Shown here: positions 1-61,227 of the stretch, piece by piece
How the letters are laid out: every line of letters starts with the position of its first letter
Numbering within the stretch: position 1 is the first letter of the stretch
From: a virus
IMG/VR virus record: IMGVR_UViG_3300019854_000029
Span: 1 to 64,000 of that record
Length of the DNA stretch: 64,000 bases
Direction: 5' to 3' (one strand)
Program-made: the position numbers and the translations under genes
The notes under the pieces: generated by a model
The model's database searches: none
Seen by the model: only the letters and a program-made list of their open reading frames with translations
What the model was told of the DNA's origin: nothing

Positions 1-429
1 ATGGTGTTTTTCATCAGTTTTCTTACATCAGTTTACATCAGTCATCAAAAAACGTCATCAACACGCCGGGATGCTAGTGTTTCCAACGAAACAGTGTTTT
101 GGGGGTAGCGTGCTGTACGCCCGTGACCGTGACCAAGAAACAAACCGTGCTATAGCGTCTCAAAACGTGGACTAGACGCTCAAAACGTGACCAACCAAAG
201 CATCATGCTATAAACCCGAAACTATATGACCAAGAAACCCATCTTCATGACCAAAGAGTGAAACTTCATGACCAAGGCGTAAAACACGCCCCAAAAACAG
301 GAGCGTGCGAAAAACAGAAACTATATGACCAAGAAAACAAACTTCATAACCAAGAACCGCGATTTCCATAACCGAGAAACACAACTATATGACCGAGGAA
401 CAAGTTCATGACCAAGGCGTTATAAACGC
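1..429. repeat. IR-L: left copy of a ~430-bp inverted repeat packed with iteron-like direct repeats (outer edge cut by window start)
   Basis: 1-429 is the reverse complement of 60799-61227. Positions 1-87 versus 61141-61227 differ at about one base by eye; the inner part is colinear but diverged. Eight phased copies of [TC]AT[GA]ACC[AG]AG start at 225,246,267 and 324,345,367,388,407 (19-22 bp period). There are also degenerate GTGACC copies at 122-195, two CTCAAAACGTG copies (159,179) and five CATCA(G) copies at 12-60. Confidence 0.9.
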
Positions 430-487
430 TGGTTTATGCCGTAATTGTGTGAGTATGGCTATGTTTGGAACGTGTCTTTGGGGGCTT

Positions 488-718
488 CTATCTTCGCCGG
501 ATGATCTCTTGCGCTCGCCACACTAAGTCGGCGGGCGTGGTGTGGAACGCTCGTGCAAGCTGCGCGATCTGGTTGATTTTGATGTCGCGTTCTGCGGAGA
601 GGATACGCATGAGAGTGCTTACGGGGATGCCGGATGCTTCGGATAGTTCGCGCACCGTCATGCCGCTAATGGCTCTTTCAGCGGAGACGGCTTTCGCGAT
701 AGCGTGGTTCATGTCCAT
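488..718 (-). CDS. XRE/Cro-type helix-turn-helix regulator
   Basis: 76-aa ORF. GMTVRELSEASGIPVSTLMRILS fits the Cro/C1 HTH pattern. It lies immediately inside IR-L. Confidence 0.8.
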   Translation of the reverse strand: MDMNHAIAKAVSAERAISGMTVRELSEASGIPVSTLMRILSAERDIKINQIAQLARAFHTTPADLVWRAQEIIRRR

Positions 719-808
719 GTCTCTAGAACACGCGGGCGGTGGGAGAGCGTGGGGATAAATGTGTCCCCGCCCCAGACGGTGCCGAGACGGGGACAGTCGG
801 AGAGATAG

Positions 809-2305
809 TTAGCGACCTGCCTTCTGGATGTCAGCAACCTGCTTGACAGTCATACCGAGGAGTAGAGCGATTGTTTCTTGCGCGTAGCCTTCCTTCGTGT
901 ACACCTGGACGCTACTAACTAGATCGCCTTCATCGAACTCGGGGACGAACACGGGGGCGGCTACGATCACCGAGTACGTGAAATAGAACCAGCCTTTCTT
1001 CGGGCCTCCCTCACGAAAGACTTCTTCCTTCCCACCGGGAATCAGAGTGAACTCGTCGGCTTGCGGGTCGTAAGCGACTAGCCTCGCCATGAGGCGCTTG
1101 CGTTCCTCAGTGTTCTTAGCGGAATCAACTCTGTGCAACGTGTCTTTAAGGAGCTTCGTGAGGCCACTGATGCGCTTCTGCCCGTATGGGGCGGTTTTCT
1201 CCATCAGGTGCCTATAGAGACTGGTTTCGACGGTGCGCAGAATCTTGCTCTCGAAAACGTGGTCAAGGTCGTTGTAGTACAGGCCCTTATACATTTCCTT
1301 TGACGGCGGGTACTTGACGAGCGAAATGACCGTCGCACACAGTCCCTCCAACAGGGACGATTTAATGCCGTCGTAAGAGTCAGCGGGGATAGAAGTGCGC
1401 CACACTTGCTTCCCGTCTTGCATGAGACGGTACACCCACGTGTCGAACCCGAACCTAGCGTCAAACGTCGCCGTGTATGTCAGGCCAGTGAACTGCCTGT
1501 CAATGTTCACGCTTGGCCCCATTGCTCGTAGGGAGTAAATGGAACCGGAAACTAGGAGGGGGGTTTCTTCTCTCATTGAGTATGTGAGCTTACCGGGGCT
1601 GTCTGTGGAAGCGAAAGTGAAAGCATCATCAGGCTCGCTATCCTTAGCGGGTTTTTCTTCCGCGTCTGCGTGGGCTGACACGATCTTGCGGTCAGGCATT
1701 CCAGACACGATTTCCAGCTCGCGTTCTTCGCCGCCCGCCTCCATCTCATCGAGACTGTAGGTCACCTCAAAACACGTTGTGAAACAATCGTTCTTAAAGT
1801 CGTAAGCCCGCAAGCATGAAGCATACTCAGCGTATTTCTTAGGGACCGGCGGCACGAACCACGTGAACAGGTTCGTGTCCAAATCCCACAGGAGCGAAAT
1901 ACCGTCCTCCGCATACGGGTGAGTCTTGACGAACTTTTCCGCCGCCTTCCGAGAGTCAAACACTCGACTGGGAGACCATTCTTCCTCCCCAGCGGGAGTG
2001 AACTGCGGGCGCTCAGCCCACAAGTAATAGTCCTCACCGGACTGGCAAACGAACCGCGCGGGGACACCTTCGGGGACGATATCGTCACCGGGGCCATCAA
2101 TCGCGATCTCGCTAATGTGCGCGGCATCGCGAATGATGGTCTCTAAGGTTTTCAAGACCTCGCTGATATCCCAACCGGCCTCAGTGTCATTGAGAATACG
2201 GTGAAGATTAGCTTCTAGGTTGAGTGCCCACTGGACGTGAGTGTGCTCAACGCGCCACTTCTTGCCTTCTTGTTTGATCGTCGCGTAAATGCCTGTTTGC
2301 GCCAT
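809..2305 (-). CDS. HTH superfamily, long form A1 (unknown function; C-terminal sigma-70 region-4-like HTH)
   Basis: 498 aa; first of three tandem paralogs. Shared motifs are G[IV]YATI near the N-terminus, LLWD[LM]D[TA]N.FTWF, RFG[FY]DT.V and C-terminal YTKEGY.Q..IAL[LI]L..[TS]VK[QE]V. Confidence 0.85.
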   Translation of the reverse strand: MAQTGIYATIKQEGKKWRVEHTHVQWALNLEANLHRILNDTEAGWDISEVLKTLETIIRDAAHISEIAIDGPGDDIVPEGVPARFVCQSGEDYYLWAERPQFTPAGEEEWSPSRVFDSRKAAEKFVKTHPYAEDGISLLWDLDTNLFTWFVPPVPKKYAEYASCLRAYDFKNDCFTTCFEVTYSLDEMEAGGEERELEIVSGMPDRKIVSAHADAEEKPAKDSEPDDAFTFASTDSPGKLTYSMREETPLLVSGSIYSLRAMGPSVNIDRQFTGLTYTATFDARFGFDTWVYRLMQDGKQVWRTSIPADSYDGIKSSLLEGLCATVISLVKYPPSKEMYKGLYYNDLDHVFESKILRTVETSLYRHLMEKTAPYGQKRISGLTKLLKDTLHRVDSAKNTEERKRLMARLVAYDPQADEFTLIPGGKEEVFREGGPKKGWFYFTYSVIVAAPVFVPEFDEGDLVSSVQVYTKEGYAQETIALLLGMTVKQVADIQKAGR

Positions 2306-2320
2306 GACGAGCCTGCTTTC

Positions 2321-3811
2321 TTACTTGTCGGCCATTGAGCGTTGAAGTGCGGCAACCTGCTTAACGGTCACGCCGAGGAGTAGTGCGATGGTGGGCTGAC
2401 TGTAGCCTTCCTTCGTGTAAAGCAGGGCTTCCATCTTCGGTTCTTGCCCGTGTTCACGCACAGGGATAGCGAGCACATCACGATACGAGCAGACAGCGAC
2501 CGCGCTTTGCATACGCGCCACAAGGTTGCGAGAGCCACTGAGAAGCATGTCGATCTTCCCGTCTCGCATGACAGCGAAACAACGGGATGCGTGACGTTCC
2601 CGGTCCTCTTGAGTTTCCGCTGTTTCAACATCCCGGTAGGTCGCGGCCAGCAGGTTCACGAACTTCGCCACGGGAGGCATGTCCGCTGCGTCGGGGTTTC
2701 GCCGGTTCAGCATGTCGATGAAGTCCATTACCTTACGGTGCCCGTAGGGGAAGTCGATCTTCTCGTCAAAGACTGCGTGCGGGTCGTTGTAGAGCAGGCC
2801 CTTCGTCATCTTCTCGGTCATGTCGTCGGGGTCGTAGGTGGCGACCGCCGTGTAGAGACCTTCGAGGAATACGTCGCCGTCTTGCCCGTCGATCTTCGGG
2901 GTGTGGCTCCACCGCCAGACTTGCTTACCGTCCTTGATGAGCTTGTACACCCACGTGTCGAACCCGAAACGAGTGTCAAGCGTTGCCGTGTAGGTCAGTC
3001 CTTGGAAATCGCGCGTGACGCGGGGCGTTGAAACAGAGTAGATGCTTCCGGTTACCGTGGTGGCCGGGCCGTCATCGTGGCGCTGCATGGTGTAGTTGAT
3101 TGTTTCGCCCGGGAGGTGGGCGGGCGTATAGGTTTCGCCCTTCTCGGGGCCTTCCTCACTGGGAGAAGAACTCTCACCAAAGAGGGGAATAATGTCCTTA
3201 CTGCTAGACCTGCCGAAAAACTCAACGTTCTCGATTTCCGGGGCCTTCATTTGCTCAAAGCTGTATGTCACGCGGCAGCAGAACCCATACTGTCCGGTCG
3301 CAAAGTTATATGCCCGAATACTGTAGTAGTCGCCTTCGGTGAACCATGTGAACGTGTTCGCGTCCAAGTCCCACAGGAGCGAAACAGCGTCCTGAACATG
3401 ATTGTGGGTGAATATGAACGTTTCTGCTGCTTTACGGGTCTTAAAAACTTTGGAGACAGAGAAGCGGTATTCCTTCGGTGTGTCCTTCGAGCGTTCTGCG
3501 CCACCTACACAGAAGCATTCTTTCTTGTCGCGCGAATAGACCAAGTATTCACTAGGAGTCTCATCGACCGATTGCTCAAAGTACTTATAGTCGTCTTGGA
3601 GATATTCAACCGCGCCGATATGTGCACAGTCGCGGATAACGTTTTTAAGGACATTCAGACACTTGTCTGCCTGCGTCCGTTCAGGGTCTTGGAGCAGATA
3701 GTTCAATACGTGGTGAAGATGTAGCGCCCATTGCACGGTGACGTGTTCTAGGACGTATTCTCCGGTTTCAGGGTTCTTCTGGATGGTTGCGTAAACGCCG
3801 CGTTGTCCCAT
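2321..3811 (-). CDS. HTH superfamily, long form A2
   Basis: The track ORF extends to 3907. I moved the start to ATG 3811 because MGQRGVYATI aligns with the A1/A3 N-termini and GGAGG lies 7 nt upstream. It carries the same motifs as A1. Confidence 0.85.
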   Translation of the reverse strand: MGQRGVYATIQKNPETGEYVLEHVTVQWALHLHHVLNYLLQDPERTQADKCLNVLKNVIRDCAHIGAVEYLQDDYKYFEQSVDETPSEYLVYSRDKKECFCVGGAERSKDTPKEYRFSVSKVFKTRKAAETFIFTHNHVQDAVSLLWDLDANTFTWFTEGDYYSIRAYNFATGQYGFCCRVTYSFEQMKAPEIENVEFFGRSSSKDIIPLFGESSSPSEEGPEKGETYTPAHLPGETINYTMQRHDDGPATTVTGSIYSVSTPRVTRDFQGLTYTATLDTRFGFDTWVYKLIKDGKQVWRWSHTPKIDGQDGDVFLEGLYTAVATYDPDDMTEKMTKGLLYNDPHAVFDEKIDFPYGHRKVMDFIDMLNRRNPDAADMPPVAKFVNLLAATYRDVETAETQEDRERHASRCFAVMRDGKIDMLLSGSRNLVARMQSAVAVCSYRDVLAIPVREHGQEPKMEALLYTKEGYSQPTIALLLGVTVKQVAALQRSMADK

Positions 3812-3888
3812 GACGGGGCCTCCAATTCTTTTGGGTGGAGCGATTGTCTTACCGCTAGGAAATGTTTCCTCTCGCCGCGTGAACATGG

Positions 3889-3937: not shown

Positions 3938-3974
3938 GGATGAACTATTCGGATTTTCCGAACGGTTGGGCCTG

Positions 3975-5468
3975 CTACAAGCCGCGCTGGGACGCTGATA
4001 CTTCCTTAACGCTCATGGCAAGAATCAACGCGATACGTTCTTGCGTATAGCCTTCTTTCGTGTAGGCCAAGACGCTTTCTCGGAATGGCCGGTCTTGGGC
4101 TTGCGGGTGAACCAGCGGAGAGTTTGCGAGGTCTTTGTAAGCGATGACGTGCGTGCGAGGCCCAGTGGCCTGTTTCGCTTTCTTCTTGGCTTCTGTCGCG
4201 CCGATAGCCTGCGCGAACACGCCGTTTTGCCAGTCAACGATGAAGTACGTGGTTCTAAGGCGCGTTTTTTCCTGCCGGGTTTCCGCTTTCTCTATGGCTT
4301 TGAGCGTCATTGCAGCGCTGAGTGTTAGGCGTTCAGCTAGGTTCATCTCACCGGCAGACAGTCCTTCACTGCGCGGAACGCTCACGTCACGCACACCCGC
4401 GTAGATGTAGACCTTGTAGGTGTCGAGGAGAAGATGCTTAGCTTTGTCTTGGAACAAGGTCCAGTCGTCGTTGTAGCGTAGACCGTCTTTCACGCCGATC
4501 ATCAACTCATCGCGGTTATCGGCAATATGCCTTGCGGTGGCGCACAGCGACTCGAACACGGCTTCCCTCATGTTCTTATAGGTAGAGGGATTACGGCTTG
4601 TTCTAAACACGGGTTTTTTATCGCGGTAGAACGTGACAACCAAAGTGTCGTAACCGAACCGCTTGTCGAGGACGACCTTGAACGAGGTGGGTTCCCACTG
4701 TTCGTGTTCCTTACCGTGAACAAGGATTTTCTCAATAGTCCCGGTGAGACTGGTTTCCGTGTTTTCTTTGCCTTTCCGGTACTCGATAACCACTGGCAGG
4801 AGCTTGCTCTCATACTCCTCTGGGGGGCGCTGCTCTAAGGGGGTGCGGTAAAGCGGGATTTCAGGGAGCCGGTGGCGTGATTCGCCGTTGATAGCGTTGA
4901 CCACGGCCCGGCGGTCACACATCTGCTCGAACGTGTAAGTCACGGCAGAACAACTCTCAACCTTCTCTAGGCCGAAATTGAACGCGACGAAACTGTAGCG
5001 TTTCCCCGGAGCGGTGAACCACGTGAACGTGTTCGCGTCCATATCCCATAGGAGGTTCTTGCTCATTAAAACGGGAGAGTAGTGGTTGTAGATAGCGTCG
5101 AGAGCTTCCTGTCGAGAATCAAACACTCGCTCATCAAAGTCACGCTCAAACGCGGGTACGTCGCTAGAGAGCCGCATGTTTGCGACTAAAAGTTTTTGCG
5201 TCTTATCTTCCGTGAATAAAGCAGCCCAATCGTCGTGAGCTTCAGCTTCTTCTGCCGAGCACTCTGTGATTGCGTGGATGCTTTCACAGTCCTTGATGAC
5301 TTTCAGTAAGACATCGAGGACTTTATATGGGTCCCAGCCCTGTTGGGGGAGAGACATCATGTGGTGGATTGAGTCATGGCTGATGCTCGTGTTTCCCACT
5401 TCAACGATACGGACAAGTGTTTTCCCGTCTTTGCGTTGGTTAATGGTCGCGTAAATACCTTCCGACAT
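3975..5468 (-). CDS. HTH superfamily, long form A3
   Basis: 497 aa; has the MSEGIYATI, LLWDMDANTFTWF, RFGYDTLV and YTKEGYTQERIALILAMSVKEV motifs. AAGGAAAGAAG lies upstream of the ATG. Confidence 0.85.
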   Translation of the reverse strand: MSEGIYATINQRKDGKTLVRIVEVGNTSISHDSIHHMMSLPQQGWDPYKVLDVLLKVIKDCESIHAITECSAEEAEAHDDWAALFTEDKTQKLLVANMRLSSDVPAFERDFDERVFDSRQEALDAIYNHYSPVLMSKNLLWDMDANTFTWFTAPGKRYSFVAFNFGLEKVESCSAVTYTFEQMCDRRAVVNAINGESRHRLPEIPLYRTPLEQRPPEEYESKLLPVVIEYRKGKENTETSLTGTIEKILVHGKEHEQWEPTSFKVVLDKRFGYDTLVVTFYRDKKPVFRTSRNPSTYKNMREAVFESLCATARHIADNRDELMIGVKDGLRYNDDWTLFQDKAKHLLLDTYKVYIYAGVRDVSVPRSEGLSAGEMNLAERLTLSAAMTLKAIEKAETRQEKTRLRTTYFIVDWQNGVFAQAIGATEAKKKAKQATGPRTHVIAYKDLANSPLVHPQAQDRPFRESVLAYTKEGYTQERIALILAMSVKEVSASQRGL

Positions 5469-6013: not shown

Positions 6014-6015
6014 GG

Positions 6016-6430: not shown

Positions 6431-8017
6431 TTATTCCCACGGCCACTTTTGGGTGATGCCACGTTCAAGGAGAGGAATCATGTTGAAAGCGTTATCGGTG
6501 AGGCCACCGAACGTCCATCGCAAGGGCCGTGAGGCTCCCTGTGCTACGGCGTATCCGTCGAGGTTCCACGTGAACACGGGAGTGTTCTCAGCGAAACTGT
6601 CGAGAACGTTATCGACTGAGCGGCCCCAAGAGTTCATTGAGGTCTGTTCGTCAGTCAAAATGATGACGCGATCATACGTTTCACCGTTCGCGTATGCGTA
6701 CTCGATAGCGCGGTCAGTGTAAGTTCCGCCGTAAGAGCTGGGCATGGCTTCCGTTGCGCGCAAAAGGTCGCGAGTATCTACTCGAATATCCTTTGCGTTT
6801 TCTGCGAAAGCGACGACGCGAACGTTTTCGCCTCGGATAGCGAGCGCAGCCGCAAACACGTTAGCAGCGTCCTGACGAGTCAAACTAGAGCGCTCAGACA
6901 AGGCAGCGTGCATTGAGCCGGACGTATCAAGGAGAACGAGAGTACGGCCCTTGAGTGCGGGAACCGCCGACAAAGAGGCGTTAGCTGCCCGCTGCAAAGC
7001 AGGAGCGAAATCTAACGGCGTGTTCTTGTAGGCAGAGTAGAACGCGACGGGGAGAGTACGCGAGGCGCGTGCTTCTTCACGGTCTCCAATACGCTTTGAC
7101 ACGGTGTCTAGCAAACTGTCGGGAACGTCCTCTGTTTCTGCGATACGACGCAAGCTCATGCGCAGCGCCGTGTAGCCCATAAAAGGAACAAGGGACTCCC
7201 ACACGCTCGCGGGAACCTTACGCAAAGCACTGGAAACAACTTCAATACTCAAAGCTGCTTCCTTAATGACTTTCTCACTATCGAGGCCAGTTAGGGCCTC
7301 GATCTGCTTCTCGACAGGCAGAGACAGGAACGCTCGACGCGCACGAATAGTCTCCAATCCCTCAGCAGAGTTAGCTTTTCCGTATGACTCATCGAGGACG
7401 AGGCGAACAAGGCGAGACTGTGCCTCATTACGGGGGGAGAGGTGTACGAGGTTGATAACGTCACGCAGCTTGACGGTGCCTGAGTTCATGCGCCCGTTCC
7501 ACTTCAAGTACGAGCGCTCATTCAAGAGCGCCTTGAGAGCGTCGGACACGCCTCGACGCACACACGAGGGGACGTTTCGACCGTAGTTGCTCAGCCACCC
7601 GGCAAGGAAATCGCCGGTTTCGTCCAAACGGCCAATGGAAGCCCTAACGATCTCGCGATTGTAGCCGGAAAGCCCAGCTTCAAGGCGAGCCTTAACGACA
7701 CTCATTGCGACGATCATGGGGACAGAACGTAGGCCAACATCTTTACGGAGCCAACCCACAAGCCCGAGAACCCATTCAGGAGAGTTCAATACTTCTTCTT
7801 CGCGTGCGAGGCGCTGAATACGCTCAGTGCGTTCGTTAGCGGTTTCGTAGAACGTGTCCTCATTCAGTGAGGTGACGGCAGCGAGAAACAGTTCGCTCTT
7901 AGGGGTGCGGGTATAACCCAAGGCACCTTCATGAGTGAGAGCAACGCGGTCTGTGGTAGCGACCGGCGTGGTTGCAGTGTTTTTAGGGCGAGCGGTTCGC
8001 GTATTCATGCGCGACAT
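6431..8017 (-). CDS. rsr: Ro60-related protein (Rsr): TROVE domain + von Willebrand A domain
   Basis: The N-terminal part is TROVE-like (HEGALGYTRTPKSELFLAAVTSLNEDTFYE...). The C-terminal vWA has a complete MIDAS (LLDTSGSM ... GGTYT ... LTDEQ). I set the start at ATG 8017 (GGAGG 5 nt upstream); the track start is 8029. Confidence 0.85.
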   Translation of the reverse strand: MSRMNTRTARPKNTATTPVATTDRVALTHEGALGYTRTPKSELFLAAVTSLNEDTFYETANERTERIQRLAREEEVLNSPEWVLGLVGWLRKDVGLRSVPMIVAMSVVKARLEAGLSGYNREIVRASIGRLDETGDFLAGWLSNYGRNVPSCVRRGVSDALKALLNERSYLKWNGRMNSGTVKLRDVINLVHLSPRNEAQSRLVRLVLDESYGKANSAEGLETIRARRAFLSLPVEKQIEALTGLDSEKVIKEAALSIEVVSSALRKVPASVWESLVPFMGYTALRMSLRRIAETEDVPDSLLDTVSKRIGDREEARASRTLPVAFYSAYKNTPLDFAPALQRAANASLSAVPALKGRTLVLLDTSGSMHAALSERSSLTRQDAANVFAAALAIRGENVRVVAFAENAKDIRVDTRDLLRATEAMPSSYGGTYTDRAIEYAYANGETYDRVIILTDEQTSMNSWGRSVDNVLDSFAENTPVFTWNLDGYAVAQGASRPLRWTFGGLTDNAFNMIPLLERGITQKWPWE

Positions 8018-8044
8018 AATTGCCTCCATTATTGGCGTGTTTAT

Positions 8045-8138: not shown

Positions 8139-8140
8139 AG

Positions 8141-8231
8141 CGGAGCGAGTGGGAGTCGAACCCACGGAACGAGTTGTTTCCCGTTCACTTCATTAGCAGT
8201 GAAGCCCTTTCGGCCACTCAGGCACCGCTCC
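8141..8231 (-). tRNA. tRNA-Ser (anticodon GCU), class II, CCA not encoded
   Basis: The 91-nt manual fold has acceptor GGAGCGG/TCGCTCC (one G.U) and a 3-bp D stem with a GG loop. The anticodon stem is CTTCA/TGAAG with loop CTGCTAA. A long variable arm forms a GAACGGG/CTCGTTC stem. The T arm is GTGGG-TTCGACT-CCCAC and the discriminator is G. Confidence 0.9.
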
Positions 8232-8394: not shown

Positions 8395-11300
8395 CTAGCG
8401 AGCGTCGTTCAGGCCACGAGCAACCGCACCCATCGCACGCTTACCCCCACCACCAAGCAACTGGCCCACACCAAACAATGCGCTCGCGGTGAACCCAAAC
8501 GCGCTACGCCACGTCTTACCGAGGAACCCGATATCGTTGCGCTTCCACGTGTCAGTCGTCCAGTCCCACGTGCGCTTACGACCACGCGACAGGTAGCGGG
8601 TAGCGGCGTACATGGCTGCTTGCGTGTCGTCATAGCGGCGCATACCGGTCGGGACACCGTGTTCTTCACTCCATGTGGAGCGGTCGAACTCTTCCCCGGC
8701 AATCGTGATGTGTTGGAGAGTGGGGAAAGCAGCGAACATTTGCCCGATGCTCTTACGGCCCTCGAACCCGAGGTCAGGGCACACATACGACATGTAGAAC
8801 TGCCATGAGTCGAACGACATTCGGCGTAGGTTGTGCATCTCGCGAATCATCCGCCAGTTCGCGATAGGAGCGATGTTGCTTGACCGTACTGCTTCACGCA
8901 GGTACTCGGGGATAGCCTCAATATCCCATTCCTCAGCGACCTTAGTCTGGTAGGCGACACCGTTGAGGATAACGAGGCCACCGGCCACGCCCAGACGCTT
9001 CACTCGGCCCCAGTCGCCAACCCACTGGCGCATATCCTGATAGATCGCGTCCTGAACACCATCAGGGGTGAGTTCTTGCGCGTGGATAGTGCGAGGCGTG
9101 CCCTTGTTGAACGAGAACCCGCCGTACTGGTTCGGTGTGACAGGGCTGGTGGAGTAGTCCCATCCGGGAGCGGGTGCCGTCACGTCGTTCATGCGAGCAT
9201 TCACCGGCACGGGAGCGTCATCGGGAATGTCAGGCATGATGGGAGCCGGAGCGCTCACAACCGGCATAGCAGGAGCGACGGCAGGCTTAGGCTCTTCACC
9301 CCACCCGCCGACGGTTTCCACCTTCCCGGCGGGCGCAGTATCAGTCAGTGACGCGAACGCCGAGTCATCCCAAGCGTCCTCTTCTTCCATGCGCAACGGG
9401 TCCGCAGCGTCCTCTTCGGGGAACTCATTGGGATACACGCGGGCAAACAGTTCGCGCTCAGCGTTCACTGGGTTTTCCGAACGGTTAAACGCCGCATAGA
9501 ACTCAGCAGACGAGTACATGTACTTCGGACGCAAGTCCACAAGCCACTCTTGCCACGTCCCCGGATAACCGGCTTCCTTCACGACGAGGTTCGCCGCGTC
9601 GGAAAGTTTCTGTAGGGTTGCAGCGGCCTCAGCGCGAGACACTCCCGCGCGTTCAAGGTAGCCAATGAACCCCAAGGCCGGGTCAAGTCGCCCATCGTCA
9701 AGGGACACGTCCTTACGGACAGAATCAACGTCCACGCCCGCGCGCTTCATGTATTCCACGGAGAACGGCCAGCAGTACCCGTCCTCTTCGGCTTCCGCAT
9801 ACAGGAGACCGGGACGGAACGGGAGAGCAGTTTTAGCTAACTGCTCATCGCCCTTCACGAGAGCGCGCTCAATGTTCGGCCCGTTGAAGTCTTGCACGTA
9901 AGCAAACGCGCGCACCGTCTCAGAGAGCTTGTCATGCATGAACCCGTTCGGGGAACCCTGATTGAGGTACTGGGGGCGTTCCTTGTTGTAGCCGATAAAC
10001 GCATCAGCAGCAGTCAGGGACGAGGCGAACGAGAACACGAAATTGTCCATGTTCCCCAGCTTCACGGTCACGCCCTGAGTACGGTTCAACGGGGGCACGA
10101 ACGTTGAAACAGGAGTAGGAGCAACCTCGTGTTGACCAATGAGGAAGATATCGCTCACAGCCTGCTCGCGGTTCTTATAGTTCGCGTTACCAATCGTCGT
10201 GATCTTGTCCGCGCTCATACGGATACACTCACTGAACATTGAGGCCCACAAGTGAACCTCAGTGATCGCATCCTTGGGTTTCTTCTTCTCATCAAACCCG
10301 GACGCTTCCCACGTGTCGTAGGAGTTCACGTAGTCAGCGGGGCGCGCATATTTAGCGAGCTGCACAAAGAACCGGCTCATCGACAAGCCGACGTTACTGA
10401 TCTCATCGAAAACGAACGACACGCCCTTCTTGCCGCCCAACTGTTCGGCAACGCCCTCACCGTTCGTGCGAGCAAGGAGAATGCCCATAGCGAGAATCAT
10501 GTACCGGATGTAAGCGACCGTACCCAGCAGACCGGGGTAGCTTTCCCCTTGGAACCCGAGGGGCCTCAAGTAGGACGGGACGTGAGCCATGCGGCCTAGT
10601 TTTTCTACCTGATCGGCACCGAAATGCCCAAACAAGTCCGTGCCCTTCTCGCTACCGAAGTCAGGGCCGTTAATGACGAACGCATTCGGGTTGATCTCTA
10701 GCAGGAGGGAAGCCATGTCGGGCTTATTGTCCGCAAGACCGAGGGCCTTACCGGCAATGAGCATTGCCGCAAGGTACGCCTGAGTCATGAGGCCCTTACC
10801 GGAGCGAGAACCAGCTAGAACAACATGCAGGCCGCTCTTAGCGAACGCGGACAGTGCTTTGGACGTGTCAACGATTGTTTCGTCTAGTCCGAGGCCGAAA
10901 ATCGCGACGGTTTCAGCCCGCAGGTTCGCGCCTTGACTCATCTTGGCTTCAAGAATCTTGTAGGCGAAAATCGGGGCGGCGTTAGCGAGAATCGTATCCA
11001 CGTCATAACGGTGTTCCCACATGAGGCTGCTACGAACCGGCGCATACGACCGGCTCTTATTACCCGCAGCCACACCGTAAGCGCGTTCCACGGACTCTTT
11101 AGCGATGTCGTCACCTAGTTCCTCGTGGCGCGTGAGGGAACGCAGTTTGAGCTTGGTGAGGGTTGCGCGACTGTTGACCTCGAATGAGGACACGAGGAAA
11201 CACGTTGTCATCGCATTGTAGATACGTTCCAACGCGCCTGAAACACTATTCTTCACGCTCTTAGACGTGTAATCCTCGCCGTCGCTCGCGGCCCGCAGGA

Positions 11301-12888
11301 GGAGTTTCTTCACGACAGCTTGAAGCATCGTCTCCAAGCTCGGCTTCACCTCTTGTTCGAGGTAGGTTTCCCACTTGGAAGCCGCAGCGAGGCGCGGATA
11401 CGACTCCGGTGACGCGGGGTCAAAACCGCGCCCGAAAGCGTATTCGAGCATCTTGTAGGGGAAGTAGAACTCGGTGTCTTTCGCATACACCTTGCCGTTA
11501 GAGTCTTTCCCGTTTACGACGATCTCAGCGATCTCGTTAATGTCCCTCGTGGGCATGGCTTCCAACTGGGGGACGAGGCCCTTGATGACCTTCCATGTTT
11601 CCATCGTCACCGAGTCCGGTAGGCGCATGAACGCGCGGTCATCGTCGTTGATCGCCAGCACGCGGCCCTTAGAGTCCTTCCCGTCCGCGCCCGTGTTTTC
11701 GGGGGCGAGAATACCGAAAGGCTTAATGACCTCGTAGCCGGAGGAGAAGATTCGCGTGTATTCTTCCGCGATCATTTCAACGTGGGAGAAAATCATGCCG
11801 TTAAAGAATGACAAGGCTTCATCGGGAACAGTCTTGTCAGGCTCACGTTCCCCGTTGAGAGCGTCAATCACTTCTTGAATCGTGATGCTCTTAGAAACCG
11901 TGTCGAACCCGAGTTTTTCACGTTGCTCTTTCGGCAGGGCATGGAGATACAACGCGGCAGACAGGGCTTCGTTTTCACAGTCACACATCACGCCGTGGAA
12001 CTGTTCTTTCGTGAGCTGCCCGAGAACACTGCTGCTTGCAACGACAGGGAACCATTCGGGCTGAGCGTCAAGGGGGGAGAGGTCCCACGTGAGCGCGGCA
12101 ATAGCGTCAAGGTACACGCCGCCACGCTGGGCAGCGGCCTTCAACAGTCGCAACAGGCTCATGCGCAGTGGGGAAGCCTCAAACTCAGCAAGACGCGCAG
12201 CCAACCCGTCATCTTCGGGCGCACGGAACGCATCGACCGTCTCAACGGCTCCCTCTTCTTCGGGCATACGCGGGCGCGTACACAACCCCGACAGGAACGT
12301 CTCTAGCGTCCCGCCGATCATGTCCGCAGAATACGTTTGAGGTGAGAGCTGGAAACTGTTCATCACCATGTCATAGGGCTTCACTTGCACGTACTGGCCC
12401 ATTTGAGACAAGTCAACAGCGAACTGCAAGGGGACAGGCGCATCCAACAGGAGCGGGCGAGCATCCACGCCACCGCCTTGAGCTTCCGCATAAGCCTCAC
12501 GCTCACGGCGCAACGCGCCCGCAAGCAGTTCAATCCCCATCATGCTCTCATCGGGAATACGGTAAATCGCGCCAATACGAGTGCCCTCAGTGAAAAACCG
12601 CGACAAATCCACGCCCTCAAACATGCTTTCCGGCGCGACAATCACTTCCAACGCGCCGAACTGCTTATACGACAACGCGCGCAGCGGAGAACGACGCGAA
12701 TCAGCATTCTTCGGGTTAGCAGGAGTCAACGCACCCTTATTCGCCCCATGCTTTTCTACATACACGCCGTCATGGGAAATAATCAGGCTCTTCACCGTGT
12801 TCGGAGTCCACGAACCGTAATCCGTGCCCTCACCGTCAGTGACCCAATGACCACCCAACGCCTTCAACACGTCATCAAACGACACCAT
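8395..12888 (-). CDS. giant (~1497 aa) protein with central P-loop NTPase-like motifs, possibly TraG/VirD4-type
   Basis: A single uninterrupted ORF. The track start is TTG 12930; I prefer ATG 12888 (MVSFDD). Motifs are VVLAGSRSGKGLMT (Walker-A-like, GKG as I recall in TraG/VirD4 coupling proteins) and VSFVFDEIS (Walker-B-like). There is a Pro/Ala-rich linker near residue 1230. Confidence 0.8.
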   Translation of the reverse strand: MVSFDDVLKALGGHWVTDGEGTDYGSWTPNTVKSLIISHDGVYVEKHGANKGALTPANPKNADSRRSPLRALSYKQFGALEVIVAPESMFEGVDLSRFFTEGTRIGAIYRIPDESMMGIELLAGALRREREAYAEAQGGGVDARPLLLDAPVPLQFAVDLSQMGQYVQVKPYDMVMNSFQLSPQTYSADMIGGTLETFLSGLCTRPRMPEEEGAVETVDAFRAPEDDGLAARLAEFEASPLRMSLLRLLKAAAQRGGVYLDAIAALTWDLSPLDAQPEWFPVVASSSVLGQLTKEQFHGVMCDCENEALSAALYLHALPKEQREKLGFDTVSKSITIQEVIDALNGEREPDKTVPDEALSFFNGMIFSHVEMIAEEYTRIFSSGYEVIKPFGILAPENTGADGKDSKGRVLAINDDDRAFMRLPDSVTMETWKVIKGLVPQLEAMPTRDINEIAEIVVNGKDSNGKVYAKDTEFYFPYKMLEYAFGRGFDPASPESYPRLAAASKWETYLEQEVKPSLETMLQAVVKKLLLRAASDGEDYTSKSVKNSVSGALERIYNAMTTCFLVSSFEVNSRATLTKLKLRSLTRHEELGDDIAKESVERAYGVAAGNKSRSYAPVRSSLMWEHRYDVDTILANAAPIFAYKILEAKMSQGANLRAETVAIFGLGLDETIVDTSKALSAFAKSGLHVVLAGSRSGKGLMTQAYLAAMLIAGKALGLADNKPDMASLLLEINPNAFVINGPDFGSEKGTDLFGHFGADQVEKLGRMAHVPSYLRPLGFQGESYPGLLGTVAYIRYMILAMGILLARTNGEGVAEQLGGKKGVSFVFDEISNVGLSMSRFFVQLAKYARPADYVNSYDTWEASGFDEKKKPKDAITEVHLWASMFSECIRMSADKITTIGNANYKNREQAVSDIFLIGQHEVAPTPVSTFVPPLNRTQGVTVKLGNMDNFVFSFASSLTAADAFIGYNKERPQYLNQGSPNGFMHDKLSETVRAFAYVQDFNGPNIERALVKGDEQLAKTALPFRPGLLYAEAEEDGYCWPFSVEYMKRAGVDVDSVRKDVSLDDGRLDPALGFIGYLERAGVSRAEAAATLQKLSDAANLVVKEAGYPGTWQEWLVDLRPKYMYSSAEFYAAFNRSENPVNAERELFARVYPNEFPEEDAADPLRMEEEDAWDDSAFASLTDTAPAGKVETVGGWGEEPKPAVAPAMPVVSAPAPIMPDIPDDAPVPVNARMNDVTAPAPGWDYSTSPVTPNQYGGFSFNKGTPRTIHAQELTPDGVQDAIYQDMRQWVGDWGRVKRLGVAGGLVILNGVAYQTKVAEEWDIEAIPEYLREAVRSSNIAPIANWRMIREMHNLRRMSFDSWQFYMSYVCPDLGFEGRKSIGQMFAAFPTLQHITIAGEEFDRSTWSEEHGVPTGMRRYDDTQAAMYAATRYLSRGRKRTWDWTTDTWKRNDIGFLGKTWRSAFGFTASALFGVGQLLGGGGKRAMGAVARGLNDAR

Positions 12889-13362
12889 GCTTAGTGTCAC
12901 CTCTCTACTCAAGCCCCACACTAGGGGCAAAGAAAGTTGCTAACCTACAACACTCGAAAACATGGGGGAGAGGGCATAAAAAAGCGTGAACCGCACGGCC
13001 CATCGAGGCTAAGACCGCGCGGCTCACGCCGTGTATTTATCACTGTGAAAAAACTGGAAGCAACACAACCGCCAGCACTCACATAACTAAGCCTACAGCC
13101 ACCACCATGTTCTGTCAGGAACACGCCTATAAAGCACGAGGCCCGCGCGGCCCACCAGAAGTGGAGGGGGCACCGCGCGAGCCTTAAAACGACACAAACA
13201 CAAGGAAAATGAGGAAACCCCGTGCCCATGTCGCCATGCGATCTCAATACAGAGGACACGAAACACGATCATCGCCACCGCGTTTCTTGTTCTCACACGT
13301 AAGCATACAAGCAACACGCCGTAACGCAAATCACTTTACTGAGTAAAGACTGTAAATAGGCG

Positions 13363-14083: not shown

Positions 14084-14207
14084 TAAAGAAGCGAAACGAT
14101 AACGCAGTAACTCAGCCACAGTAGAGGGAAGAGAGAAAAGCACAAGCAAAGCCACCCGGAGGGGCTTTTTGTGCCTAAAACGCTTTAACTTGAGGCGTTT
14201 AACAGTC

Positions 14208-15170
14208 ATGTACGGGACTTTATTTGTCTATGTGGGACCTATGGGCGCGGGTAAGACGCAGGATGCGGCTTCATGTTTTCTGGATTCCAGTGTTGTCTCA
14301 CTGAGTGCTATTCACCGTGAAGCGTATGGCTCCCCGGTGGTTGATCGCCAGTATAAAGACGCAGTGACGCGGCGCGCGTTTAAGAAACTATTCGCATTGT
14401 TAGAGCGCGGTTTGGACGCGGTTTTCATAGCGCCTAACTGTTCTCGCATGTCTCGCGCGCACTTATATCGGGAGGTGAAAGCACGGTTCCCGGGCGTGCG
14501 GGTGGTTGTCGTGTTGGTGCATGTACCGCTCGCAGAGGCTATCAAGCGTTCTAACAATGTGAGCGCGTCCCATGTTCGAGACGAGTATCTAGGGCTGCAA
14601 ATCCCGCGCGTAGGCGTGGACTGCGACACGTTCACGCTGCAAACACCCGACTTCTCGGCCTACCTGCCGGAAATCAACCACTCGTACCTCGCGCCTCATA
14701 ACAGCCCGTATCACGTGGAGTCCATTGCTGAGCATGTTGCCCTCACGGTACATAACGCGCATAAAGACACCACCCGGCCCGCATTAGTGGATATCGCAGC
14801 GTTCCACGACCTCGGTAAGAGCGTCGCACGCACAGCACAAGACCTATCCAGACCATCATCGGCGTATATCGCATCCATTTACGGCAGTCACGACCAGTAC
14901 GCAGGCCATGAGAACGTGAGCGCCGTCTACTGGATGATCGCCCACAAGGACTGTCTTGACGCGCACGCCTTGTTCGTTGCGGAAGCAATCTTCCACCATA
15001 TGCAAGCCCATCGTGGTTTTACCGACAAGTACATCAACCGCCACCACCTCACCGGCGATCTGTTGGAAACCGCACGCGCTTTCGCGCAAATCGACAGTAG
15101 CTCGAAAATCGTAGACAAAGACATCTTGGACACGTACATGAGGCTGCGGGCAGCGGAAAAACAAGGCTAA
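14208..15170 (+). CDS. P-loop kinase (polynucleotide-kinase/AAA_33-like) fused to an HD phosphohydrolase domain (K1)
   Basis: The track start is TTG 14169; ATG 14208 gives MYGTLFVYVGPMGAGKT (Walker A). The C-terminal half carries NSPYHVESIAEH ... AAFHDLGKS ... HHMQAH, which are HD-domain metal ligands. It is a paralog of 22838-23821. Confidence 0.8.
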   Translation: MYGTLFVYVGPMGAGKTQDAASCFLDSSVVSLSAIHREAYGSPVVDRQYKDAVTRRAFKKLFALLERGLDAVFIAPNCSRMSRAHLYREVKARFPGVRVVVVLVHVPLAEAIKRSNNVSASHVRDEYLGLQIPRVGVDCDTFTLQTPDFSAYLPEINHSYLAPHNSPYHVESIAEHVALTVHNAHKDTTRPALVDIAAFHDLGKSVARTAQDLSRPSSAYIASIYGSHDQYAGHENVSAVYWMIAHKDCLDAHALFVAEAIFHHMQAHRGFTDKYINRHHLTGDLLETARAFAQIDSSSKIVDKDILDTYMRLRAAEKQG

Positions 15171-15245: not shown

Positions 15246-16013
15246 ATGAACGATCAGAAGCCTTATCCTCTGCCGCTTTGCCCCGACGTTCAAGCAGTAG
15301 CCAACTGGTCAAGTAACGAACTAACAGGGACTTTGACGTTCTCAGACCCCGCATTCAAGCCCGTCCACTTCATCACCAAACCTATTGACCGTCATGGGCT
15401 TATCCGTGAAGTGACTTACCTGACGCACGATGACATGGTTATCGGAACAAGGTTTGTTTCTCGCTTTTACCTGGCTAACCCATTGACTGCGCGAGATTTA
15501 CTTCAAGGTCTTGAAATTAAGTCCCCGACATCTGTTCGTTGCTGCCCCAAGAAAAGTTGCGACGACGACAACTATAAAAAGGGCTTCTTTTTCAAGGTCC
15601 GTAAAGCTATCGGCGTACACAAACCACACTATCCTGATACAGAAATCGAAAAGGATACCTACCGCCAGATTGCCGAACAGTGTTTCAACCTGTTTCACGC
15701 ACTAAAAGGCGGGTTTATCACGCCAGAAGAAGCGGGCAACTGCAAGTGGCTCATCGACGTAAAAATGCTCTCATTCACAGCGGAATTTAACGGTATTTTC
15801 TCCAATATCGACAAGAAGAACCTCCCGCCACACGTGCGACTTGTCGCGTACTACGACATTCTCGACACGCCCGCTTTGTACGACGAGTGCTCATTCGCGA
15901 GAAGCGTGTTCCTGTGGGCCGCACAAGGCTACACGCAAGAAATGATCGCGTTCTTCATGGGAGTCAGCGCCAGCAAAATCTCCCGCATCCTCAACCAGCC
16001 ACTCGACGAGTAG
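15246..16013 (+). CDS. HTH superfamily, E-type, N-terminal part of a split gene (E0-N)
   Basis: 255 aa; aligns with residues 1-~250 of E1-E3 (LTGTLTFSDPAFKPVHF versus RGTLVFSDSRYKPISV). It ends with the HTH WAAQGYTQEMIAFFMGVSASKISRIL. Confidence 0.8.
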   Translation: MNDQKPYPLPLCPDVQAVANWSSNELTGTLTFSDPAFKPVHFITKPIDRHGLIREVTYLTHDDMVIGTRFVSRFYLANPLTARDLLQGLEIKSPTSVRCCPKKSCDDDNYKKGFFFKVRKAIGVHKPHYPDTEIEKDTYRQIAEQCFNLFHALKGGFITPEEAGNCKWLIDVKMLSFTAEFNGIFSNIDKKNLPPHVRLVAYYDILDTPALYDECSFARSVFLWAAQGYTQEMIAFFMGVSASKISRILNQPLDE

Positions 16014-22837: not shown

Positions 22838-23821
22838 ATGCCAGCGCTTTATATCCTCATCGGCCCAGCGGGGGTCGGTAAGACAAGCCTTGTGAACAGG
22901 ATTAGCGCCGGTAATGTCGTGTCTACAGACGCTATTCGCATCGAACGATACGGTTCCCTCACGGAAGGCAACAAACATAACCCGCAAGTATTCAAGGCTG
23001 CTTACAGTTACATTCACACGCTGCTGGACATGGGACAAGACGTGTTCTTTGACGCGACGAACATTAGGCGACTCTTACGCGCCGATCTGTATCAGGACGT
23101 GAAGAAACGTCACCCTAATGTTCCCGTCATCGCGCTCATCATTCATAAGCCTCTCGCTCAGATTCTTGCCCAGAACGCTTTACGTATGGGGGACGCTCGG
23201 GTACCTGAAGAAGCTATCCGCTACATGTACCTGCACTTGGATATTCCGCGCCTCGGAGTAGACGCAGACGCAGTAGAACTGCAATGCCCCGCGTTCGACG
23301 AGTACATTCCCGAAATGACGCTCAACATTGACGCACCCCACCGCAACCCCTACCACGTGGAAACAATCGCGAAACACCGCGAGCGCGCCATACAGATCGC
23401 AGCGAGCGGCCCATACGCAGACAACCCCGCGTTAGCTCACGCAGCCGCCTACATTGACCTCGGTAAACCCGTCGCACGCACCCCACAAGACACGTCCACG
23501 CCATCAGGCGCTTACGCAGCGGCCCACTGTGGCGGCTACGACATGTACGACTGCTACGAGAAAGTCAGCGCCCTCTACTTCCTCATCGCACACAAAAACG
23601 CGCTCACCCCCTACACGTGGCACGTAGCCGAAAGCATCTTCCAACACGTCCACGCGCACAGTGGCTTCACGAAACGCTACGCCGCCACACACCACCTCAC
23701 GCGCGACGTGATAGCCACAAGCAAACAACTCGCCTCCATCGACCAACAAGCCAGCCTCACCAACCCGCAGGTACTCAACACCTTCAAGCACCTGCAACTA
23801 GCCGAAAGGAAAACAGCGTAA
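22838..23821 (+). CDS. P-loop kinase / HD-like fusion (K2) with a degenerate HD dyad
   Basis: MPALYILIGPAGVGKTS (Walker A) and FFDATNIRR (PNK/AAA_33-like). The C-terminal half is colinear with K1, but FHDLGK is replaced by YIDLGK. Its stop overlaps the start of the next gene (TAATG). Confidence 0.8.
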   Translation: MPALYILIGPAGVGKTSLVNRISAGNVVSTDAIRIERYGSLTEGNKHNPQVFKAAYSYIHTLLDMGQDVFFDATNIRRLLRADLYQDVKKRHPNVPVIALIIHKPLAQILAQNALRMGDARVPEEAIRYMYLHLDIPRLGVDADAVELQCPAFDEYIPEMTLNIDAPHRNPYHVETIAKHRERAIQIAASGPYADNPALAHAAAYIDLGKPVARTPQDTSTPSGAYAAAHCGGYDMYDCYEKVSALYFLIAHKNALTPYTWHVAESIFQHVHAHSGFTKRYAATHHLTRDVIATSKQLASIDQQASLTNPQVLNTFKHLQLAERKTA

Positions 23822-24891: not shown

Positions 24892-24930
24892 CCAACAGCA
24901 ACCATCTAACAACCGAAAGGCAACAGGACG

Positions 24931-26004: not shown

Positions 26005-26074
26005 TCGCGCGAAACTATCCGACGATTACTCCTAGCCAAACACAACCATTTAGCACGAGAAAGGCAATAGCCCA

Positions 26075-57854: not shown

Positions 57855-57889
57855 GCTGAGGTAATCTCAGTTCTGAGAATCAGTTAAAG

Positions 57890-57927
57890 GGAACGCCCCG
57901 CTTACGTCTTTGTGAGCGGGGCGTTCC
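57890..57927 (+). terminator. terminator after the adhesin gene
   Basis: 13-bp perfect stem GGAACGCCCCGCT / AGCGGGGCGTTCC. Confidence 0.7.
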
Positions 57928-58028
57928 TGTATCTTCATTAAACCACTGGTTGTTGCGCGCGCACCCATAGAGGGAACGGCCCCCGCGAGTGGCCTACTGC
58001 GCGGGCAAACCCTACGTGACACGCTCGG

Positions 58029-58052
58029 GCCATACTGCTACTATTTAGGTAC
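58029..58052 (+). promoter_or_regulatory. Recurring upstream element, copy 3
   Basis: GCCATACTGCTACTATTTAGGTAC, 104 nt upstream of ATG 58156. Confidence 0.5.
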
Positions 58053-58155
58053 AACACAAACCCGTAGGGCGCACCAACATCAACACAAACCCTTAAAACG
58101 CGCCACCAACACGCATTCCTTAAACACATCACACCCAACAGGACAGGACACGGCA

Positions 58156-59013: not shown

Positions 59014-59043
59014 CCAAACCCAACCACAACAACAGGAAAAACA

Positions 59044-59907: not shown

Positions 59908-59911
59908 AACC

Positions 59912-60727
59912 GTGATTCGCATTGAAGATACTCAACGCTACACGTGCCAGCTCGGCCCTATCGCGCAACGCTGCGGGCTTTACGAAGCGCCTATTGAAAG
60001 TTTCTGCGATACAGAAACCGGACTCAACGTCCGCCCCAATCAGAACAACACGCTATCGCTTGTCGCTAAGAGAAACGACCGATTCGGGTTCACAACATGG
60101 GTAATCACTATTAAGCGGAACAGAAAAATAGCGTTCCGAATGGGAGTCACCCCTCAGTTCCTAAGTGCGGTCAGCGACAAGAGACCCACCCTCGCAGAAA
60201 ACGCCGATACCCTGCACCAGTGCGTGAACTTTGTGTTCAACACATACGTTCACGTAGCAAGTCGTGGAGAACTGAAAGCGATTCTTCTTTACGAAAACCC
60301 GCAGCTCCTATGGGAAGAAAAAGTACGCGCATATAGCACTCCCCGATATGCGCACCTCTTAGACGCTCCCCTCGGTGATTCCACCCCGCTAGAACAAATC
60401 GCCACGATCATGCGCGAAACGGCTGATGCGCTCTCAAACACCCCGAGAAGCAGGAACACAAAGAAGCGCGCCACGCTACTAAGCGCCGGATGTGCTTTAG
60501 GGATAGACGGTTCACTGCTCCGTATTTTCAATCCCCTCACCCCCACAAGTAACGCACACCTTGGCATCTACCAATACGGGCATGTTGTACGTGCTCCCAT
60601 CCTTGCTGTGGGGTGCCCGAACGCTAAAGCAAGTGTCTTTGCGTTCGCAAAAGAAGGCTACGGAAGAAGAATGATCTCTACACTAACCGGTATTCCTCTT
60701 AGCACTATCAGCGATTTCCTGCGTTAG
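59912..60727 (+). CDS. HTH superfamily, short form C3
   Basis: GTG start. Motifs: RFGFTTWVITI and FAKEGYGRRMISTLTGIPLSTISDFL. Confidence 0.8.
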   Translation: MIRIEDTQRYTCQLGPIAQRCGLYEAPIESFCDTETGLNVRPNQNNTLSLVAKRNDRFGFTTWVITIKRNRKIAFRMGVTPQFLSAVSDKRPTLAENADTLHQCVNFVFNTYVHVASRGELKAILLYENPQLLWEEKVRAYSTPRYAHLLDAPLGDSTPLEQIATIMRETADALSNTPRSRNTKKRATLLSAGCALGIDGSLLRIFNPLTPTSNAHLGIYQYGHVVRAPILAVGCPNAKASVFAFAKEGYGRRMISTLTGIPLSTISDFLR

Positions 60728-60739
60728 GCTAAGCGAAAT

Positions 60740-60775
60740 GGCCCTACTGCTTTTCGTTGCAGTGGGGCCGTTTTG
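60740..60775 (+). terminator. terminator after C3
   Basis: GGCCCTACTGC (60740-60750) / GCAGTGGGGCC (60759-60769), 11 bp with one U.G, followed by GTTTTGGTTT. Confidence 0.65.
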
Positions 60776-60798
60776 GTTTATTTCGGCCTAGTTTTTCG

Positions 60799-61227
60799 GC
60801 GTTTTCAACGCCTTGGTCATGAACATTTTTCTTGGTCATATAGTTGTGTTTCTTGGTTATGGAAATCGCGTTCCTTGGTTATGGGAATTATTTCCTTGGT
60901 TATATAGTTTCCATTTTTCACGCGGTCGTGTTTTTGGGGCGTGTTTTACGGCTTGGTCATGAAGTTTCACTTCTTGGTCATGAAGATTCATTCCTTGGTC
61001 ATATAGTTTCCGGTTTGTAGCACGATGCTTCGGTTGGTCACGTTTTGAGCGTCTAGTCCACGTTTTGAGACGCTATAGCACGCTCGGCGGCTTGGTCACG
61101 GTCTCCCTTTTACAGCACGCTACCCCTAGAGACCTGTTTCGTTGGGAACACTAGCATCCCGGCGTGTTGATGACGTTTTTTGATGACTGATGTAAACTGA
61201 TGTAAGAAAACTGATGAAAAACACCAT
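60799..61227. repeat. IR-R: right copy of the iteron-bearing inverted repeat
   Basis: Reverse complement of 1-429. It carries the same phased CTTGGT[CT]AT[GA] copies, AAAACGTG copies and CTGATG copies. Whether the homology continues beyond 61227 cannot be tested, because the left copy runs off the window. Confidence 0.9.

Follow-up and report, generated by a model that had tools for sequence, protein, structure and literature searches.

The closest described counterparts of the locus reported here are plasmid and viral elements that carry cis-acting sites in repeated form. Iteron plasmid origins (RK2 oriV, R6K gamma ori, P1 oriR/incA, and F ori2/incC) resemble it in their ~20-bp phased direct repeats next to an AT-rich segment and, further, in the second iteron set found on the replicon and in the location at a switch in strand composition, a feature that here applies to the right of two copies. 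Origins in inverted repeats (those of the inc18 plasmid pSM19035, herpes simplex virus 1 [HSV-1] oriS, oriA/oriB of the chloroplast inverted repeat, and the yeast 2-micron) share with it a cis element that occurs twice, in inverted orientation, and two arcs of a circle separated by the repeats. Finally, the centromere-promoters of the parC/ParR/ParM type (R1; Alp7 of pLS20) show similar pairs of direct-repeat clusters around or upstream of a promoter and encode an actin-like protein. Our locus lies in a 64,000-nucleotide stretch of DNA (the window; positions 1 to 64,000 of IMG/VR virus record IMGVR_UViG_3300019854_000029) and consists of a 548-bp noncoding, cis-acting module, of which a circular replicon of approximately 120 to 122 kb carries two copies inverted with respect to each other. 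The reading that we favor, although tentatively and with less than even confidence, is that of a duplicated iteron-type replication origin or control module.

A repeat finder identified window positions 1 to 429 as an inverted repeat of positions 60799 to 61227, with 88% complementarity over 429 nucleotides, a length of match that rules out chance. The first-pass annotation of the window had already reported this pair, along with a nearly identical outermost stretch and a more diverged but colinear iteron part, and had suspected that the repeat might be longer than the window shows. The comparison agreed on each count: only one of the first 94 positions distinguishes the copies, the remainder is colinear and more diverged, and in contigs that span the left junction (L004, L006, and L007 to L017), where the left copy is internal, homology with the right copy continues beyond the window start to the position equivalent to 61344, so that the repeat is 548 bp long and has sharp borders. 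The right copy (60797 to 61344, minus strand) is complete and comprises an iteron half (60797 to 61100), a core (approximately 61133 to 61227), and an outer part (61228 to 61344) with the leader and upstream region of a 132-aa gene, while the left copy (1 to 429, plus strand) is truncated by the window edge, approximately 119 more bases lying upstream of the window start. The window begins inside the repeat because assemblies break there, at various nearby points. The artifactual window start that the annotation named as a refutation thus applies as far as the break is concerned but not to the left copy itself, which is genuine: its sequence is distinct from that of the right copy, and many independent assemblies show it between unique flanks.

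A 63-mer of invariant repeat sequence was found in five stretches in four IMG/VR contigs of 109 to 122 kb. The 122,138-bp contig UViG_3300008090_000002 starts in the outer part of the left copy and has a 47-bp end overlap within that copy; the element is therefore circular, with a size of approximately 122 kb, which answers the question of replicon topology raised in the annotation. The two copies divide the circle at approximately 52:48 (~63:59 kb). The suggested likeness to the arms of linear replicons did not hold, and terminal inverted repeats were rejected: in spanning contigs, unique DNA extends past both copies, the contig closes as a circle, and the repeats are not at physical ends. 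Transposon ends with multiple transposase sites (Tn7/Mu-like) were likewise discarded, the flanks being identical in all assemblies and no transposase being found at the borders. Positions outside the window are given on a composite genome of 120,063 bp, which consists of the window and the other half of the 122-kb contig and thus joins two strains that are ~95% identical.

From the outside to the inside, each copy contains an outer part of ~117 bp with two stem-loops, adjacent to the outward gene and comprising the leader and upstream region of an outward operon that differs between the copies, followed by the ~95-bp core, two GTGACCAA sites, three iterons, a 57-bp gap, five iterons, and a hairpin. 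The resulting ten sites per copy (2+3+5) are arranged in ~21-bp, i.e., helical, phase around the core sequence ATGACCAAG. Allowing at most one mismatch, this sequence occurs 33 times in the window, where 11 occurrences were expected, which supports the iterons described in the annotation; 17 of these sites fall within the two repeats and have a single orientation per arm. Similarly, AT[GA]ACC[AG]AG is found 17 times in the 120-kb composite, with 15 sites in the repeats and 2 elsewhere. In the iteron half of the left copy (120 to 429, plus strand), the two outlying GTGACCAA sites start at 129 and 187, the cluster of three at 226, 247, and 268, and the cluster of five at 325, 346, 368, 389, and 408. 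An alignment of 28 copies (15 left and 13 right; 23 distinct haplotypes), drawn from no fewer than 24 assemblies, showed that the site spacing (58, 39, 21, 21, 57, 21, 22, 21, and 19) is retained in nearly all of them. A short GGCGT..ACGCC hairpin closes each iteron cluster, one in the 57-bp gap and a second, small hairpin at the inner border. Iteron number does vary: one right copy (L005, 5202 to 5942) has a duplicated block and thereby 13 sites, and two right copies (L020 and L023, both 9417 to 10036) are short of one iteron.

The core (positions 1 to 95 of the left copy, plus strand) is near-invariant; the motif (A/T)CATCA(G) occurs in it five to six times, and it can form a hairpin (CTGATG..CATCAG). 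With 33 to 47% GC in 40-bp blocks, against ~55% for the element as a whole, it is a candidate AT-rich unwinding region, and the two 80-bp segments with the lowest GC content in the entire window are the two iteron halves. Eighty of the 94 core columns are invariant in the 28 copies, with a longest invariant run of 33 nucleotides, while flanks and spacers vary; this fits the proposal of an old duplication whose core is kept under selection. The annotation had also suggested that the near-identical outer stretch could support inversion. Its near-identity is not supported as a sign of recent recombination, the stretch being invariant across the population, which points to functional constraint instead. 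Within the iteron half, invariant columns are more frequent in iteron cores (70%) than in the rest (55%; p = 0.017). Constrained iteron cores and free spacers are the pattern expected of protein-binding-site arrays, and we infer that a single sequence-specific DNA-binding protein probably loads on both arrays. A 70-codon open reading frame (ORF) with a TTG start (61126 to 61338, minus strand, and its equivalents) is open in each of the 26 full-length copies, with no frameshift in any of them, but variable sites fall evenly on its three codon positions (16/16/16), and it was therefore treated as noncoding. No credible Rfam family was found within the repeat, and a search of IMG/VR for paired iterons returned this element only, plus one unrelated palindromic array (L064).

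Among the 28 copies, there are no fixed differences between left and right inside the repeat and 115 shared polymorphisms, whereas fixed differences begin immediately at both repeat borders. Multibase variant blocks recur on both sides in differing combinations, and the nearest relative of several copies is on the opposite side, as for the right copy of L024 and the left copy of L003 (94% identity). This distribution shows that the copies exchange tracts and does not support independent divergence of the two; the exchange may proceed by gene conversion or by recombination between coresident elements. Nevertheless, the copies are not homogenized: in the three genomes for which both are available, left and right are 88%, 86%, and 91% identical, close to the left/right mean of 87% in the population. 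A RecT-like single-strand annealing protein (phrog_561, E 7e-16), encoded ~3.5 kb outside the right copy (composite 64874 to 66157; 13510 to 14859 in L020), could drive recombination between diverged repeats and paralogs.

Strand composition sets the two copies apart. In the composite, cumulative GC skew is lowest at 60602 and highest at 104.5 kb, and it hardly changes between 104 kb and 9 kb, a span that includes the left copy. In a per-gene regression, position (R2 of 0.43) outperforms orientation alone (0.18), with the best switches at 61 kb and 103 to 104 kb. At third codon positions, orientation dominates (beta of -0.15), with a position term of 0.086 that places the switches at the same points and raises R2 from 0.60 to 0.70. 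The change is visible in individual genes: the plus-strand genes C1, C2, and C3, just inside the right copy, have skews of -0.17, -0.08, and -0.13, and plus-strand genes just beyond it have skews of +0.25, +0.08, and +0.14. A switch point is thus located at 60500 to 61400, given the skew minimum and the ~61-kb estimate of both the per-gene and the third-codon-position models. The right copy is one of two polarity switch points of the replicon; the left copy is not.

If the sign of the skew is canonical (G over C and T over A on the leading strand), the right copy would be an origin, and our preferred reading takes it as the main bidirectional one. The left copy, which lies nearly across the circle from it, would then be a second iteron set, acting perhaps as a weak secondary origin, as a handcuffing partner, or as a centromere-like promoter of the operon that contains the actin-like gene. 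The two would swap tracts by gene conversion, possibly aided by the RecT-like protein, while the 60-kb segment between them stays uninverted. An iteron origin is expected to have at least three direct repeats of ~17 to 22 bp in helical phase and an adjacent AT-rich region, and both are present here, as ten sites per copy and as the candidate unwinding region of the core.

Several observations weigh against this reading. No Rep gene was recognized next to either copy among the neighboring proteins scanned (the A and C proteins discussed below and proteins of 76, 132, and 216 amino acids [aa]), and the A and C neighbors are without a Pfam or PHROG match. An AlphaFold model of C2 (predicted local distance difference test score of 72), in which a beta sheet at the N terminus and a three-helix unit at the C terminus enclose a helical region, had no fold match in the PDB at E < 0.1, winged-helix initiators included. 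Neither repeat contains a DnaA box (TGTCCAC), the closest two such motifs being located at ~103.8 kb of the composite, and a scan of the repeat for sigma-70 consensus promoters yielded nothing above background. Weak Rep-like candidates sit elsewhere. One is an HTH_36 protein near 104 kb, and the other is a 377-aa protein (29395 to 30528, minus strand) that matches PHROG replication initiation families (phrog_270, E 6e-16); its gene is situated very close to the midpoint between the two repeats, next to a region of divergent promoters (30528/30567), its homologues came from this element only, and a PDB search with it was empty. The skew argument, moreover, rests on a composite of two ~95%-identical strains, and only the right copy coincides with the skew minimum and the fitted switch, the left copy showing no switch. 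Last, forks that start from the right copy would meet approximately two-thirds of the genes head-on, so that gene orientation favors a terminus at the very place where the skew sign fits an origin.

Before alternatives are weighed, the genes on the outer sides of the module need to be described. At the right copy, an outward operon (61365 to 62693, plus strand, for its first genes, of 132 and 280 aa) starts 20 bp beyond the border with the 132-aa gene, and the order continues with genes for proteins of 270 to 280 and 369 to 390 aa, followed by WhiB, RecT-like, GmrSD_C, SpoVG-like, and FtsK/SpoIIIE proteins. At the left copy, the first outward gene (216 aa) starts 18 bp beyond the border, and it is followed by genes for proteins of 317, 236 to 275, and 278 aa, then by one for a 391-aa MreB/ParM-like protein (MreB-like_C) and others, all pointing away from the repeat. 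The two sets of outward genes are not homologous. With only 18 to 20 bp between the border and the first start codon, the promoters of both outward operons should lie inside the repeat.

This arrangement is the basis of the first alternative, in which the repeat would be a centromere-promoter comparable to parC or sopC: the iterons would bind a partition adaptor that autoregulates the outward operons, and copies at opposite poles of the circle would give a large, low-copy replicon two attachment points. In-phase direct repeats directly upstream of outward operons, the MreB-like_C protein in the operon of the left copy, and the near confinement of the sites to the repeats (15 of 17 in the composite) all speak for it. 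However, the actin-like gene is only the fifth of its operon, 3.2 kb from the left copy, and so lacks the adjacency that characterizes ParMRC loci; the operon at the right copy has no partition-like gene; and no ParR-like or ParA-like partner was recognized among the scanned proteins. Since the coincidence of the right copy with the skew switch would also be left unexplained, we regard this alternative as unlikely, although it is, with the one that follows, a main rival of our preferred reading.

A second alternative follows from gene orientation and turns the assignment around, making the right copy the replication terminus, with iterons bound by protein as a barrier and both repeats serving as polar fork-arrest or fork-pausing sites, and placing the origin at ~104 kb. 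The region of the second switch (composite ~103.4 to 104.5 kb; 8900 to 10000 in L050) is indeed a candidate alternative origin. Transcription diverges there, and the region holds genes for a 366-aa protein with a weak match to HTH_36 and for a 145-aa GerE/sigma-r4-like protein, together with direct repeats of AATGTCCACTATAGG, two to three in number and similar to DnaA boxes (TGTCCAC). The switch at 103 to 105 kb thus coincides with divergent transcription, a Rep-like gene, and DnaA-box-like repeats, and an origin at ~104 kb would make about two-thirds of the genes co-oriented with replication. On the other hand, the leading strand would be C and A rich, opposite to a near-universal bacterial bias, the replichores would be unequal (43 versus 77 kb), the fork would pass the left copy without leaving a trace, and the HTH_36 match is below the Pfam cutoff. 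A terminus at the right copy seems improbable to us.

Short direct repeats also form the clt sites used by the FtsK-like TraB in Streptomyces, and the module might by analogy be a transfer site (an origin of transfer [oriT] or a clt) for an FtsK-like/VirB4-like apparatus of the pXO16 type, with the variable arrays of A and C genes as leading-region genes whose transcription is directed at the transfer origin. We know of no precedent for two inverted transfer origins. The hypervariable arrays of orphan genes directed at each repeat are compatible with such a role, as is the relatedness of the transfer genes to those of pXO16, which uses a novel type IV secretion system and for which oriT and relaxase are unknown (PMC9673590). 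Yet no relaxase or nick-site motif was found, the skew switch would remain unaccounted for, and the argument is one of geometry; we consider this explanation quite improbable.

The weakest of the alternatives is the one raised in the first-pass annotation, flip-flop inversion of the 60-kb segment by recombination between the repeats, as in 2-micron, chloroplasts, or the P1 C segment, which the division of the circle into near-equal halves, the sequence exchange between copies, and the frequent assembly breaks inside the repeat might suggest but which is highly improbable, given that none of the 27 junction-spanning stretches among the matches listed is flipped, that copies within a genome are 86 to 91% identical and not homogenized, that the skew of the segment is coherent, and that no site-specific recombinase was found among the scanned backbone genes. 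Those stretches (15 left: L004, L006, L007 to L017, L071, and L072; 12 right: L002, L005, and L020 to L029) all show one arrangement, in which the A genes are followed by a helix-turn-helix (HTH) gene, the repeat, and the 216-aa gene, and the C genes by the repeat and the 132-aa gene. Furthermore, the strong skew that the segment has kept would be erased by regular inversion, which argues against inversion on an evolutionary scale. Frequent flip-flop is excluded; assemblies can hide minor isomers, and a rare flip-flop would be compatible with these data. Resolvase matches do occur beside TnpB genes, at positions that vary by strain, and were therefore read as insertion sequence (IS) insertions. 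The TnpB genes themselves are of the IS605/IS607 type (Cas12f-like), with Y1 or serine-recombinase partners, and their insertion places differ among strains (L008, L011, L017, and L020 to L029).

Returning to the duplicated iteron module, one could take a step further and regard the two mirror modules as a single coupled system, carried by conjugative elements of oral Actinobacteria that would make up a new family related to pXO16. For instance, one copy might fire as the origin and be paired with the other, which would serve in copy control, termination, or segregation. The binding sites would be held functionally identical by selection, and divergence elsewhere would prevent inversion. We offer this broader proposal as a doubtful one.

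The genes just inside the repeats are transcribed toward the nearer copy, as the annotation had stated and as the ORFs show. On the left, these are A1 (809 to 2305), A2 (2321 to 3811, in an ORF that extends to 3907), and A3 (3975 to 5468), paralogs of ~497 aa on the minus strand; on the right, they are C1 (58156 to 59013), C2 (59044 to 59907), and C3 (59912 to 60727), of 285, 287, and 271 aa, on the plus strand. That A and C are diverged paralogs was confirmed by a BLASTP alignment (A1 residues 233 to 495 against C2 residues 5 to 277; 24% identity, E 5e-12). The shared C-terminal module of the annotation is homologous as claimed, but the term does not describe C, whose whole length (~265 aa) aligns with the C-terminal 265 residues of A. 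The mirror-image arrays it described, too, consist of real paralogs, but their symmetry is only partial because of additional members elsewhere: a seventh, of 255 aa and with the same C-terminal HTH-like module, is encoded at 15246 to 16013 (plus strand), at a distance from either repeat, and a trio of tandem paralogs of 348 to 424 aa (23617 to 27121, plus strand) is distantly related to A and C through the 255-aa protein. In addition, a gene for a 76-aa Xre-type HTH protein (488 to 718, minus strand; Pfam HTH_26, HTH_31, and HTH_3) lies between A1 and the left copy and has no counterpart at the right copy, where C3 is followed by a terminator-like hairpin with a 17-bp stem (60734 to 60775, plus strand) just before the inner border.

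Among otherwise 95%-identical strains (loci L017 and L020 to L029), A is present in one or three copies and C in one, two, or three, and where A is reduced to one copy, that gene is a chimera of A3, A2, and A1, a sign of unequal crossing-over in the array. Homology searches with A and C yielded 163 word-indexed matches and 27 matches among 1.84 billion cluster representatives, and all of these seem to be members of this one family, complete or fragmentary, none with a Pfam domain. A and C thus form what looks like an orphan family that is dispersed and unstable. In a PDB profile search, only the last 50 residues resembled an HTH, weakly and of the LuxR type. As the recognition helices differ among A and C proteins, they are poor candidates for reading an invariant iteron.

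Most proteins of the element had no family match in Pfam/PHROG-type scans of ~50 proteins. The exceptions in the window half include a C39-like peptidase accompanied by LGFP repeats, an LPXTG adhesin that has a T-Q ester domain, a tail-lysozyme-type hydrolase, a ParB-HNH protein, and, grouped with the further tandem paralogs, two AAA_33 kinase-like proteins (14169 to 15170 and 22838 to 23821, both plus strand). A Ro60/TROVE-vWA protein gene (6431 to 8029, minus strand) adjoins a 92-nucleotide tRNA-Ser(GCT) gene (8140 to 8231, minus strand), an arrangement reminiscent of the tRNA-like Y RNAs that accompany Ro60 in bacteria; the tRNA is the only Rfam match at this site. Matches in the other half of the circle comprise a DUF87/VirB4-like ATPase, FtsK/SpoIIIE, a Ser/Thr kinase, an FHA protein, and WhiB; a 1,591-aa membrane protein and a 1,354-aa surface protein are also encoded there. 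The element is filed as viral in IMG/VR, but no capsid, portal, or terminase gene was found among the ~50 proteins scanned, and we rejected its reading as a phage genome. Its gene content looks instead like that of a circular conjugative plasmid of ~120 kb, and we read it as a conjugative-plasmid-like replicon of an actinobacterium.

More than 100 human oral metagenome assemblies carry the element, many of them in near-complete form (108 to 133 kb); the A1 protein alone is present in contigs from many samples, many of which are 108 to 133 kb long. A megablast search with window positions 1 to 1500 against PLSDB and INPHARED gave no match, and neither an exact core 36-mer nor the FtsK-like protein was found in GTDB species genomes. 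Given the empty GTDB search, the host can be deduced only from the LGFP repeats, the LPXTG adhesin, and WhiB, which suggest an actinobacterium of the human mouth.

The one plasmid with recognizable relatives of the transfer genes is pXO16 of Bacillus thuringiensis sv. israelensis. The VirB4-like ATPase (composite 70881 to 76456) is 31% identical over 89% of its length to its relative on this plasmid, known for its tip transfer locus (E 9e-91), and the 1,511-aa protein (window 8395 to 12930, minus strand) has a homologue there with 26% identity; in PLSDB, relatives of both proteins were found only on pXO16. The order of genes for VirB4-like, FtsK-like, hypothetical, and SpoVG-like proteins is common to the two replicons, and pXO16 is likewise large, with mostly orphan genes and tandem paralog arrays. 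It differs in its host phylum and in its size (~350 kb), its genes occupy a single strand in two sampled 50-kb stretches, and no inverted repeat was found between those stretches (100 of 349 kb checked). These similarities suggest a cross-phylum relative of the pXO16 tip transfer system. On an element made almost wholly of orphan genes, with database relatives only in a poorly understood transfer system, no cis-acting landmark is clearer than the paired module, which is a natural starting point for finding the origin, the mechanism of copy control or partition, and the protein that reads the iterons.

Set against the systems introduced at the outset, the module departs from each of them. Unlike iteron plasmid origins, it has neither an adjacent Rep gene nor a DnaA box, its second iteron set is a complete inverted copy 60 kb away instead of a nearby control array, and each copy also heads a different operon. 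The repeats of pSM19035, HSV-1, chloroplasts, and 2-micron are long, usually coding, and kept identical, and several mediate inversion; those described here are 548 bp long, noncoding, and 86 to 91% identical within a genome, and no inversion isomer was seen. In contrast to R1 and Alp7, the actin-like gene is not adjacent, no adaptor was recognized, and the two copies drive unrelated operons. What distinguishes the module is thus an unusual evolutionary state, in which two copies draw on one shared pool of alleles and are neither homogenized nor used for inversion. In summary, a common but so far undescribed oral replicon carries what may be a variant both of iteron origins and of origins duplicated in inverted repeats.

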